Of a DNA stretch of 15,986 bases, positions 2,575 through 3,060 are shown in pieces. Position numbers and translations under genes: made by a program. The stretch lies in IMG/VR virus record IMGVR_UViG_2636415712_000006; one strand, given 5' to 3'. How positions within the stretch are numbered: position 1 is the first letter of the stretch; each line of letters opens with the position of its first letter. The stretch is from a virus (Duplodnaviria; Heunggongvirae; Uroviricota; Caudoviricetes). The notes under the pieces were generated by a model that saw nothing but the letters and a program-made list of their open reading frames with translations, was not told where the DNA came from and searched no databases.

Positions 2575-2916
2575 TCACCCACTGTGGTATATGCGTTGTG
2601 GTCTGCCAACTTTGCCGTGAACAATTTCAGCAATAATCAGATGGCGGCTGGCGCAATATTCAAGATAACGCCTGGCAGTGGTGCGGCTGATGGTCAGTGC
2701 CTGCGCCACCGTTTCTGCCGTATGTTGCACACCAGGCTCTTTAAACAGTTTTCGCACCGCGTTTAGCGTCAAGGGGTCAATGCCGGTCGGCAGTTCGTCT
2801 TTGGGTTCACCGCGAGCATAGGCATTAAACATCTCATCAATTTGCTTCTGGCTGGCGCTATCAATACTTTCCAGCATATGTTTACGCTGGCGGAAACGGG
2901 TTAGCGTTTGCCCCAG
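2575..2916 (-). pseudogene. dpiA: 3' remnant of response regulator gene dpiA (citB), C-terminal 113 codons only; 5' part replaced by the Mu-like prophage end
   Basis: Minus-strand frame is open from 2916 and reads LGQTLTRFRQRKHMLESIDSASQKQIDEMFNAYARGEPKDELPTGIDPLTLNAV...RRYLEYCASRHLIIAEIVHGKVGRPQRIYHSG*, which I recognise as the C-terminal DNA-binding half of DpiA/CitB. The reading frame runs directly into the Mu-type terminal sequence at 2917. Confidence 0.85.
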
Positions 2917-3060
2917 TGTATTGATTCACTTGAAGTACGAAAAAACCGGGAGAACATTGGATTATTCGGGATCTGATGGGATTAGATTTGGTGGGGCTTG
3001 CAAGCCTGTAGTACAAATTTTAGGCGTTAACCAATGAAACGCGAAAGATAGTAAAAAATT
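2917..3060 (+). repeat. Mu-type attL terminal region containing MuA end-binding sites (L1-L3-like)
   Basis: Terminal 5'-TG and the L1-like site TGATTCACTTGAAGTACGAAAA at 2922-2943. Further CGAAA(A)-containing repeats at about 3044-3056 and 3080-3095, consistent with Mu end-type transposase binding sites. Confidence 0.65.

Follow-up and report, generated by a model that had tools for sequence, protein, structure and literature searches.

Phage Mu enters targets of the consensus N-Y-(G/C)-R-N. In Escherichia coli, DpiAB controls citrate fermentation and is linked to beta-lactam-induced SOS responses. D108 and SfMu follow one pattern, a near-identical Mu backbone that carries a swapped module of c, ner, and the A N terminus, and SfMu, a known Mu-like phage of Shigella flexneri, has a D108-type repressor (PMC4406740). 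Prophages and pseudogenes of Shigella that have been eroded by insertion sequences (IS) are fragments bounded by IS600, IS2, IS911, and IS1, with metabolic and regulatory host genes inactivated and IS-mediated deletions still proceeding from strain to strain (PMC7373316, PMC7132871). For S. flexneri M90T, dpiA is entered as a pseudogene in Table S4 (PMC7132871).

The locus described here lies in a window of 15,986 nucleotides (the whole stretch of DNA that was analyzed) and resembles these IS-eroded loci, with the difference that the first hit on the host gene came from a transposable phage rather than an IS and that an intact repressor was kept. Our search of the Shigella literature for dpiA, citB, and Mu remnants returned no description of it. 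We very probably see the fossil of one Mu-type transposition event that was later eroded by insertion sequences. What is left is a dead left-end stump, not a live prophage; it has become fixed in the S. flexneri lineage and belongs to ordinary Shigella genome decay.

A Mu-type left end in dpiA

The host flank and the phage end comprise the following features.

1149-2534, plus strand: dcuC, anaerobic C4-dicarboxylate transporter, host flank, intact with 461 codons (annotation of E. coli matches)
2543-2565, both strands: hairpin resembling a bidirectional terminator, in the gap that separates the convergent genes dcuC and dpiA (consensus scan)
2575-2916, minus strand: 3' end of dpiA, made up of codons 114-226 and the stop codon and encoding just the HTH output domain (translation match, Pfam)
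2912-2916, no strand: target pentamer CCCAG (CTGGG on the dpiA strand), adjoining the Mu end at the point of divergence from intact dpiA
2917-3253, plus strand: Mu-type left end (attL), beginning 5'-TGTATTGATTCAC (alignment to Mu and D108 left ends, motif scan)
2927-2943, 3031-3047, and 3071-3087, plus strand: MuA-binding sites L1, L2, and L3, respectively (motif scan, Mu spacing)

The window matches the uninterrupted dcuC-dpiA locus of E. coli from position 1 to exactly 2916 at 97.7% identity, rising to 99.4% against the best-matching E. coli genomes over 2300-2916, and divergence from intact dpiA begins directly after CCCAG. From 2917 onward, the sequence matches the Mu left end base for base, with the 5'-TG... 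terminus and the L1-L3 sites in Mu spacing that mark the family. The first 335 nt are 95.8% identical to Mu and 78.8% identical to D108, and blastn pairs the window from 2917 with Mu 1-447 at 91.7%. L1 is identical to that of Mu, while L2 and L3 differ by one change each. At this left junction, the one Mu junction in the window, the pentamer CCCAG conforms to the target consensus of Mu. A reading made from the sequence alone had proposed that phage transposition cut dpiA, that the frame runs unbroken into a Mu-type terminal sequence at 2917, and that this end is close but not identical to Mu. All three points stood, although the frame meets a stop after just 3 codons of Mu-end sequence. That reading had also named two findings that would count against it, a left end that fails to align with the Mu family and an intact dpiA contiguous with the fragment; the left end aligns with the Mu family, and neither finding arose.

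The host fragment (342 nt, 113 codons plus the stop) translates to residues 114-226 of intact E. coli DpiA with 100% amino acid identity, which agrees with the 113 codons originally counted. Pfam detects the C-terminal HTH_64 alone, and the receiver domain (Response_reg) is gone; a functional DpiA combines the two in one 226-aa protein. Within the fragment, a 100-aa open reading frame (ORF) starts at an internal ATG at 2877. Compared with E. coli DpiA/DpiB (CitB/CitA), the output domain equals the 113 codons kept here and the dcuC flank is intact, but the receiver domain, the promoter, and dpiB are not adjacent. The dcuC product is 461 aa with a single terminal stop, and Pfam DcuC was found on gene calls in the S. 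flexneri loci. Taken together, the alignments indicate that dpiA was cut after codon 113 by Mu-family transposition and that the gene was thereby destroyed. Transposition is inferred from one junction, the left one, and from the behavior of the family.

Distribution among S. flexneri and E. coli

The 2916/2917 junction was absent from all complete E. coli genomes searched (5,426 of 5,426). The 40-nt sequence that spans the junction is GTTAGCGTTTGCCCCAGTGTATTGATTCACTTGAAGTACG. The S. flexneri chromosomes compared were obtained through this junction and hence all carry it; most of them, including CP000266.1 and CP026788.1, show the same arrangement at 99.6-99.9% identity, and one gap-rich S. flexneri assembly shows it at 98.8%. 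The junction is also carried by the complete chromosome LR213455.1. Since many S. flexneri chromosomes of independent origin share this 40-nt sequence and the arrangement around it, the junction is not a product of chance or of assembly. The exact c protein described below is entered in 6,687 index blocks, representing thousands of assemblies.

Gene content of the phage stump

Only Mu coordinates 1-2964 survive, at window 2917-5779 (~2.9 kb). Beyond the left end, the stump contains the following.

3254-3763, minus strand: c repressor, intact, 169 aa, C-terminal KKAV tail kept (Pfam HTH_Tnp_Mu_1; BLASTP)
3764-3916, no strand: AT-rich divergent c-ner control region, presumed from its Mu-like position to hold operators and the early and repressor promoters
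3917-4171, plus strand: ner, 78-84 codons by start choice (Pfam HTH_35, E = 5e-29)
4146-5780, plus strand: truncated transposase A', residues 1-544 (Mu A, 663), stop codon from the IS600 end (BLASTP, Pfam)

This arrangement, with c leftward, ner and A rightward, and Mu-specific DNA-binding and DDE domains, is that of the Mu family. A' is 91% identical to Mu A 1-545 by BLASTP and carries Pfam HTH_Tnp_Mu_1, HTH_Tnp_Mu_2, DDE_2, and a partial Mu-transpos_C; its first ~60 residues are divergent, and the remainder is ~98% Mu-like in nucleotides (blastn, window 4326-5779 to Mu 1511-2964, 97.8%). Phage Mu thus shares with the stump its terminal sequence, L1-L3, gene order and orientation, the bulk of A (~60-544), and the target consensus, whereas the stump's c, operators, ner, and A N terminus have no nucleotide similarity to their Mu counterparts, its A is cut, and B, the late genes, and the right end are missing. 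Homology to Mu stops at Mu nt 2964, corresponding to A codon 545, and gives way there to the inverted repeat of IS600; A' therefore ends before domain II-beta is complete and has no domain III. With one end only, no B, and a truncated transposase, the stump cannot transpose, replicate, or make particles.

The IS600 joint and the sequence beyond

The rest of the window is occupied by insertion sequences and by the remnant of a second phage.

5778-7041, plus strand: IS600, 1,264 bp, IS3 family, orfA 5842-6144, orfB 6180-6998 (E. coli annotation, inverted repeats, Pfam)
7042-12785, minus strand: lambdoid prophage remnant ("phage 2"), head genes (FDAARGOS_944 prophage annotation; Pfam)
7282-8223, minus strand: phage-2 major capsid
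8728-9948, minus strand: phage-2 scaffold/DUF2213
10586-12052, minus strand: phage-2 DUF1073 portal
Within 7042-12785, minus strand: other phage-2 genes, namely a 3'-cut STY1053-family gene, cement protein, head morphogenesis, and the terminase 3' part
12786-14116, minus strand: IS2, 1,331 bp, inside the phage-2 terminase gene (annotated in the E. coli match; 5-bp target duplication)
14117-14809, minus strand: phage-2 terminase large subunit, 5' part (Pfam Terminase_3; 99.7% to the uninterrupted reference)
14810-15986, minus strand: IS911, partial, running off the window (99.1% to elements annotated IS911)

A simple IS600 insertion has terminal inverted repeats and a 3-bp target duplication. 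Here the element matches another IS600 copy over 1,264 bp and has its inverted repeats, but its flanks, TAT and ATT, come from two unrelated phages and show no duplication, so it is a recombinant or deletion joint. The IS2 copy in the same window offers a contrast, as it has a clean 5-bp duplication and its flanks overlap by 5 bp on the uninterrupted phage-2 reference L006 (17764-17768). E. coli FDAARGOS_944 has a lambdoid prophage that matches phage 2 at 99.2%. Phage 2 is unrelated to the stump and opposite in orientation, and it has lost its tail genes. Past it, S. flexneri chromosomes continue with genes of the lysis, nin, and replication groups and also contain a group II intron, a second piece of Rz1, and further IS, among them another IS600; no host flank is reached there in typical S. 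flexneri strains, and only L024 and L025 reach ybdM'-ybdL.

The sequence-only reading had described the locus as a prophage. A complete and potentially inducible Mu/D108-like prophage in dpiA would have a second dpiA half and a distal 5-bp duplication, together with an A of ~663 aa, B, ~37 kb of middle and late genes, and attR. The left junction, attL, c, ner, and A codons 1-544 are present and Mu-like, as such a prophage would require. However, A is cut after codon 544 by IS600, which is followed by the inverted lambdoid remnant; B, late genes, and right-end-like sequence are absent from the entire window (the right end of Mu and UMNF18 reads ...TTTTCGTGCGCCGCTTCA), and in eight S. flexneri chromosomes the next ~10 kb past the window contain none of these either. 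The distal 5-bp duplication that the sequence-only reading proposed to look for thus has no end to flank in the sequences covered. A search of IMG/VR proviral contigs with Mu A 546-663 found the A C terminus in 0 of 5 genomes with an identical c. We consider a complete prophage extremely improbable, and the term "prophage" has to be withdrawn in favor of a left-end stump; for annotators, the locus is a warning that a left end alone does not make a prophage.

An immunity module distinct from those of Mu and D108

Across the block made up of c, the operators, ner, and the A N terminus (window 3363-4325), blastn found no similarity to Mu or D108. The c protein is 35% (BLASTP) to 41% (alignment) identical to Mu c and 28-29% identical to D108 c, and the ner product is 68% identical to Mu Ner and 57% identical to D108 Ner (BLASTP). 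The close similarity in repressor and operator that defines the Mu and D108 immunity groups was thus not found with either phage. The sequence-only reading had noted that the N terminus of the repressor differs from Mu c, and the identity of the whole protein places it in another immunity type. Its label of "Mu/D108-like" fits in part: the left end is far closer to Mu than to D108, and the immunity block matches neither phage. D108 and SfMu show the same exchange of a module on a shared backbone, but the module here is a different one, and the left end resembles that of D108 only at the level given above. As within Mu and within D108, the DNA-binding module of c is related to that of the A N terminus (40% over 60 aa).

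The same immunity class is found in a 31-kb prophage of E. coli UMNF18 and in three Mu-sized IMG/VR contigs (L034-L036), the c proteins of which are 85-88% identical to the one described here, with a DNA-binding N-terminal part that is almost identical. The UMNF18 prophage, the closest relative with both ends, is ~92% identical in nucleotides over the whole stump and has a c of equal length (169 aa). It differs from the stump in that it lies in yphC, has both ends, an A of 662 aa, B, and most late genes, and has no association with IS600. It is flanked by a 5-bp duplication, TCCGG, which indicates that this class transposes like Mu. No phage closer in c was found in INPHARED, and the deposited phage genomes have no representative of this module. 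By sequence comparison, the stump appears to carry a further immunity class in the Mu genus, neither that of Mu nor that of D108. Such a module is useful for phage taxonomy and for the prediction of superinfection immunity.

The identity of the repressor also bears on whether the locus is a laboratory or assembly artifact, such as a Mud or mini-Mu derivative or a chimeric contig. Laboratory strains commonly carry Mu ends fused to host genes, and truncated A genes occur in Mud constructs. However, laboratory Mu has a different immunity module, and a laboratory construct is rejected because c is not Mu c. In addition, the junction and arrangement occur in many independently sequenced isolates, the exact c recurs in thousands of index blocks, and the content of IS600, IS2, and IS911 is typical of Shigella. 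This leaves an artifact with next to no probability.

Repressor activity in the fossil is a separate matter. The intact c is presumably still expressed and could repress homoimmune Mu-like phages. A stronger proposal, compatible with the fossil reading, is that c has been domesticated and its expression protects S. flexneri from Mu-like phages of the same class, and that its leftward transcript may read into the 100-aa, HTH-only dpiA ORF. Several observations are in line with this: c is full length, as in UMNF18, while its neighbor A is truncated; S. flexneri isolates very widely carry the identical protein; the DNA-binding N terminus is kept almost unchanged relative to Mu-sized relatives; and Mu-like phages do infect S. 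flexneri (PMC4406740). Moreover, the minus strand has nothing terminator-like from the c stop codon up to dpiA', and the hairpin at 2543-2565 (8-bp stem, 7 G-C pairs) is the sole such site from the c stop codon to the end of dpiA' in the consensus scan. Against it, S. flexneri is a young clone, so the identity of c across isolates needs no selection. The SfMu repressor is of the D108 type, and the c described here is not expected to control SfMu (PMC4406740). The c-ner region contains inverted repeats at 3804-3893, but promoter-like hexamers on the minus strand (3932-3882) are no more frequent than in shuffled sequence, and read counts for the M90T dpiA pseudogene are low, with a mean of ~37 (PMC7132871). 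We regard domestication as possible but unlikely. Very doubtful is the combined proposal in which c represents an undescribed Mu-genus immunity class, perhaps kept active across the lineage in S. flexneri against homoimmune transposable phages, and in which the leftward transcript may also drive the receiver-less DpiA fragment with residual regulatory or SOS-related effects.

Fate of the missing interval

The other dpiA fragment, which the sequence-only reading had expected elsewhere in the genome, was not recovered: a protein search with DpiA 1-113 returned no N-terminal fragment ending at the junction among called proteins, and the predicted distal junction (Mu right end, CCCAG, and dpiA 5') was not found in viral contigs. 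Candidate dpiA 5' halves (P0014 and a set of 156-173 aa) proved to be frameshift variants of an otherwise intact E. coli dpiA. A frameshifted CitC (P0067) has no bearing on the locus, since its source is an E. coli assembly rich in errors. One S. flexneri contig keeps the cit cluster only from citC codon ~97 onward, behind an IS1 end, which means that on that side, too, the control region between citC and dpiB has been lost. In a reaction table by Hawkey et al., the column left blank for citrate lyase is that of S. dysenteriae and not that of S. flexneri.

The IS600 joint could also reflect an inversion rather than a deletion, in which the IS600 in A recombined with an IS600 in phage 2 and the segment A 3'-B-late genes-attR-dpiA 5'-dpiB now lies elsewhere. 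An IS600 that has no duplication and joins two unrelated, oppositely oriented sequences would be expected from such an event, and IS-mediated inversions are plentiful in Shigella genomes (PMC8072062). Mu-hybridizing bands were common to most S. flexneri strains in the SfMu study (PMC4406740), and S. flexneri does still have the cit cluster at some location. However, that cluster ends at IS1 in citC and not at dpiB/dpiA, and among proteins from thousands of S. flexneri assemblies there is no DpiA N terminus reading into foreign DNA, even though the DpiA C-terminal fragment and the partial CitC were both called in the same set. The five IMG genomes with the stump, in whose proviral contigs the A C terminus was not seen, likewise speak against relocation. 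Inversion thus appears quite unlikely, and the missing dpiA 5' half, dpiB, and the citC 5' end have probably been deleted, not moved.

The sequence-only reading had further proposed that the insertion inactivates DpiAB. The DpiA receiver is indeed lost, but the proposal was too narrow in scope, as the regulatory circuit is dismantled, with citC also cut in the one S. flexneri contig looked at. In the main S. flexneri lineage, DpiA is dead and the adjoining dpiB and citC 5' DNA is gone, a loss that fits the known metabolic and regulatory decay in Shigella.

Proposed history of the locus

As a fossil of Mu-type transposition, the locus would have arisen when a Mu-genus phage entered dpiA at CTGGG, after codon 113, in a bacterium ancestral to the main S. 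flexneri lineage. This phage would have brought an immunity module of its own, made up of c, the operators, ner, and the part of the A N terminus that binds the operators. Its insertion would have separated the receiver domain and promoter of DpiA from its DNA-binding domain, and such a split would have killed the response regulator. A later IS600-associated recombination may then have taken out all that lay rightward of A codon 544, including the rest of A, B, the late genes, the right end, and adjoining host DNA, and the stump would have been joined to the head-gene end of the unrelated lambdoid remnant.

None of these points is surprising to specialists, for whom the locus is a lineage marker of Shigella gene decay. 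The junction itself is a clean clonal marker of the main S. flexneri lineage. At the far end of the window, the IS911/phage-2 joint is strain-specific, and other S. flexneri chromosomes continue with phage-2 genes at that position.

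A Mu-type left end interrupts dpiA

The stretch from 2917 to 5779, hereafter the stump, is a heteroimmune Mu relative kept as an IS-eroded fossil inside dpiA of Shigella flexneri. To its right, IS600 joins it to an unrelated lambdoid prophage remnant, hereafter phage 2.

Features of the window
2575-2916, minus strand: dpiA 3' fragment, 342 nt (113 codons plus stop)
3254-3763, leftward: c repressor gene, 169 aa
3917-4171, rightward: ner
from 4146, rightward: transposase gene A, truncated
5778-7041: IS600, 1,264 bp, flanked by TAT (left) and ATT (right)
7042-14809, leftward: phage-2 capsid, cement, scaffold, head morphogenesis, DUF1073 portal and terminase genes
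12786-14116: IS2, in the phage-2 terminase large-subunit gene
14810-15986: IS911, running off the window and abutting the phage-2 terminase upstream region

The translated dpiA fragment (LGQTLTRFRQRKHMLESIDSA...RIYHSG) agrees with intact E. coli DpiA at every residue from 114 to 226, and Pfam assigns it the C-terminal HTH_64 domain alone. In E. coli ATCC 8739, the intact pagP-dcuC-dpiA locus matches the window from 1 to exactly 2916 (97.7%). Of 5,426 complete E. coli genomes, 5,417 match window 2300-3500 only as far as 2916, and in none does the match span the junction. Divergence from intact dpiA starts directly past CCCAG, and the Mu left end aligns from 2917 (TGTATTGATTCACTTGAAGTACG...) over Mu 1-447 at 91.7%, with the first 335 nt showing 95.8% identity to Mu and 78.8% to D108. 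All three MuA-binding sites are kept (L1 identical, L2 and L3 with one flanking change each), and the target pentamer at this end fits the Mu target consensus. These comparisons bear out the sequence-only reading that dpiA was cut, leaving its 3' 113 codons, by an end close to but not identical to that of Mu.

Within the species-representative genome set, two chromosomes contain the 40-nt junction, that of Shigella flexneri SFBU1023 (99.83% over window 1-6406) and that of 'E. coli' ECMA0423 (4.44 Mb, many gaps). The exact 169-aa repressor occurs in 6,687 index blocks, and all ten places listed for it, including CP000266.1 and CP026788.1, share the order dacA...lipA...crcB-cspE-pagP-dcuC-dpiA'-c-ner-A'-IS600-capsid...portal-IS2, where primes mark truncated genes. 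Identity to the window over ~13.8 kb is 99.6-99.9% in most of the ten and 98.8% in one gap-rich assembly. Because the same order recurs across S. flexneri chromosomes, the stump is natural, ancient within this species and fixed, and an assembly chimera was rejected.

The immunity module differs from those of Mu and D108

Gene order is as in Mu, with c leftward and then ner and A rightward, and Pfam assigns Mu-specific domains to this region. By its end, gene order and domains the stump belongs to the Mu genus and works like its members. Nucleotide likeness to Mu, however, is confined to two edges, window 2917-3362 (Mu 1-447) and window 4326-5779 (Mu 1511-2964, 97.8%). By blastn, neither Mu nor D108 resembles the 963 nt in between, which take in most of c, the control region, ner and A up to codon ~60. 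The repressor differs from Mu c, as had been suspected, with identities of 35% (BLASTP) or 41% (multiple alignment) to Mu c and 28-29% to D108 c; for Ner, identity is 68% to the Mu protein and 57% to the D108 protein. No genome in the INPHARED phage collection carries a repressor closer than 36% to c. The stump belongs to neither the Mu nor the D108 immunity group, and a laboratory Mu insertion was rejected since the repressor is not Mu c.

The N-termini of c and A are 40% identical over 60 residues (the corresponding pairs are 41% in Mu and 55% in D108). Given established Mu biology, in which repressor and transposase share an operator/enhancer, this fits a coherent module whose two proteins would recognise the same operator/enhancer. 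Mu and D108/SfMu likewise share a backbone and differ by an exchanged immunity module (PMC4406740), but the module in the window is a different one.

Among the 5,426 complete E. coli genomes, the module is present in one, the porcine strain UMNF18 (89.5% nucleotide identity; ~92% over the whole stump). There it lies in a 31,076-bp Mu-like prophage in yphC (locus L028, 677-31752) that, unlike the stump, has both ends, full-length A (662 aa) and B, together with mor, lysis, head, tail, com and mom genes. Its ends are canonical, with the 5-bp duplication TCCGG on both flanks. This prophage is probably defective too, since its tail-sheath gene is truncated and two baseplate genes are frameshifted. 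In IMG/VR, five proviral contigs carry an identical c and three further contigs of 19-36 kb carry a c that is 85-88% identical. The presumably DNA-binding N-terminal part of c is near-invariant within the group, and the C-terminal KKAV tail is common to the group, Mu and D108. Given the UMNF18 ends and duplication and the group-wide likeness of c, the module represents one more immunity class of the Mu genus, and this class transposes as Mu does. Mu-like remnants in S. flexneri had been inferred from Southern blots (PMC4406740) and dpiA had been listed as a pseudogene in M90T; a literature search turned up no published description of the junction or of the immunity class.

The stump ends at IS600

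The A frame stops after residue 544, compared with 663 residues in Mu A, and the break at Mu nt 2964 is the start of the IS600 inverted repeat (TGAGATAGCCTGAGTTTAACGG...). In MuA, residues 546-663 include domain III in full and the last part of domain II-beta, and assembly, catalysis and interactions with MuB and ClpX depend on these. Nowhere does the window contain a B gene, Mu late genes or a right-end motif. A stump with a single end, a truncated A and no B cannot move, and it is not a complete prophage; of the proposed Mu-like transposable prophage, the Mu-type left end stands and the prophage does not. The unlike flanks of IS600 show that its 3-bp target duplication is absent, and two unrelated sequences are joined there, whereas IS2 has a clean 5-bp target duplication.

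The head-gene block of a lambdoid prophage in E. coli FDAARGOS_944 matches window 7042-14809 at 99.2-99.7% identity. This block is transcribed leftward and so has the opposite orientation to Mu late genes. Phage 2 lacks its tail genes and is cut by IS600 within the 3' end of a STY1053-family gene. Differences between S. flexneri strains are further IS events. In two NCTC assemblies (L016 and L017), one strain lacks window 7042-9168 beside IS600 and the other has a second IS600 at ~9170, and IS600-driven erosion around 7042-9171 is still under way. The IS911 joint is not common to other S. flexneri chromosomes, which continue past 14810 with a 254-aa gene and dedA-like and Rz1 genes, so only the source strain or its sublineage has it.

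Past phage 2, the chromosomes of S. flexneri carry lysis, nin and replication genes, among which IS elements and a group II intron are interspersed; the reverse transcriptase of the intron (RVT_1 + GIIM) lies in the IS-rich phage-2 region of some strains (L020, L024, ~5303-6826). An IMG/VR contig from an S. flexneri-type genome (L101, 10290-14772) has a second Rz1 fragment and another IS600 past the phage-2 replication genes, and several lambdoid remnants appear to be stacked there.

The cit cluster is truncated

The intact E. coli order is rnk-rna-citTGXFEDC-dpiB-dpiA-dcuC. The other dpiA fragment was not located: querying proteins with DpiA 1-113 brought up nothing but frameshifted forms of E. 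coli genes that are otherwise intact. No DpiA fragment ending at the junction was among the protein matches, although gene callers report the C-terminal 100-aa piece in S. flexneri.

One partial CitC with an S. flexneri label (P0160) was traced to a 15-kb contig (L080, JAIQWA010000090.1). Its first 75 nt (1-75) are an IS1 end, 100% identical to annotated IS1 elements, followed by citC from ~codon 97 (76-845), citD, citE, a frameshifted citF, citX, citG, citT, rna, rnk, ybdR, uspG and ahpF. By this joint, on one contig, all that survives of the S. flexneri cit cluster is a block truncated at its 5' end and without a promoter. In the published metabolic model of Hawkey et al., citrate lyase and CitT are both scored present for S. 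flexneri (PMC7373316 Table S11), in contrast to the IS1-cut citC and frameshifted citF of this contig; dpiA, citC and dcuC are listed among the pseudogenes of M90T (PMC7132871 Table S4). Many partial CitC proteins labelled Shigella sonnei (P0155-P0166) stop at contig edges, which suggests an independent repeat-element insertion in citC of that species.

In two chromosomes (L024, CP054913.1; L025, LR213455.1; ~6485-8172), IS911 next to the phage-2 Rz1 gene abuts a 5'-truncated ybdM, so that the phage-2 region runs straight into ybdM' and then ybdL-ybdH-ybdD-cstA-ent. By this joint, neither the early region of phage 2 nor the host interval ybdN...ahpCF...cit lies between ybdL and dcuC in these two strains. 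Neither side of the locus retains the 5' end of citC or the divergent control region, and dpiB, codons 1-113 of dpiA and the right-hand ~34 kb of the phage are likewise missing from both. An IS600-mediated inversion could possibly have carried this interval elsewhere in the S. flexneri genome. The predicted right junction had no match in viral contigs, and the A C-terminus was found in none of the five stump-bearing IMG genomes in their proviral contigs. From the called proteins and the viral and proviral contigs searched, we favour deletion over inversion.

Proposed course of events and consequences

The Mu-type end at a consensus pentamer in dpiA, the lost receiver domain and the truncation at a duplication-less IS600 joint are observed. 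MuA-mediated strand transfer into CTGGG would have occurred in an S. flexneri ancestor, followed by insertion of IS600 into A, with another copy in or near the lambdoid prophage. Recombination or adjacent deletion would then have taken out the interval between the IS600 copies, and erosion by IS2, IS911 and IS600 would be continuing.

Judging from sequence, c is an intact gene that the stump may still express, and promoter-like hexamers lie upstream of it, though they are no more frequent than in shuffled sequence. On their shared strand, no terminator-like site lies between c and the 100-aa HTH-only dpiA ORF; in M90T, however, read counts are low for the dpiA pseudogene (PMC7132871). It is possible that c is a putative protection against homoimmune Mu-like phages. 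SfMu, a known S. flexneri phage, has a D108-type repressor (PMC4406740) and so would not be a target.

The proposed inactivation of DpiAB agrees with the lost receiver domain and with dpiB, dpiA codons 1-113 and the control region missing from both sides; DpiA is dead and the DpiAB-citrate circuit is dismantled. In E. coli, dpiA is recurrently frameshifted, with many 156-173-aa variants (P0001-P0016; L018 10001-10354). In one variant (P0014, 93 members) only 6 nt separate the frameshift from the Mu target pentamer, and apart from it the dpiBA-cit locus is intact.
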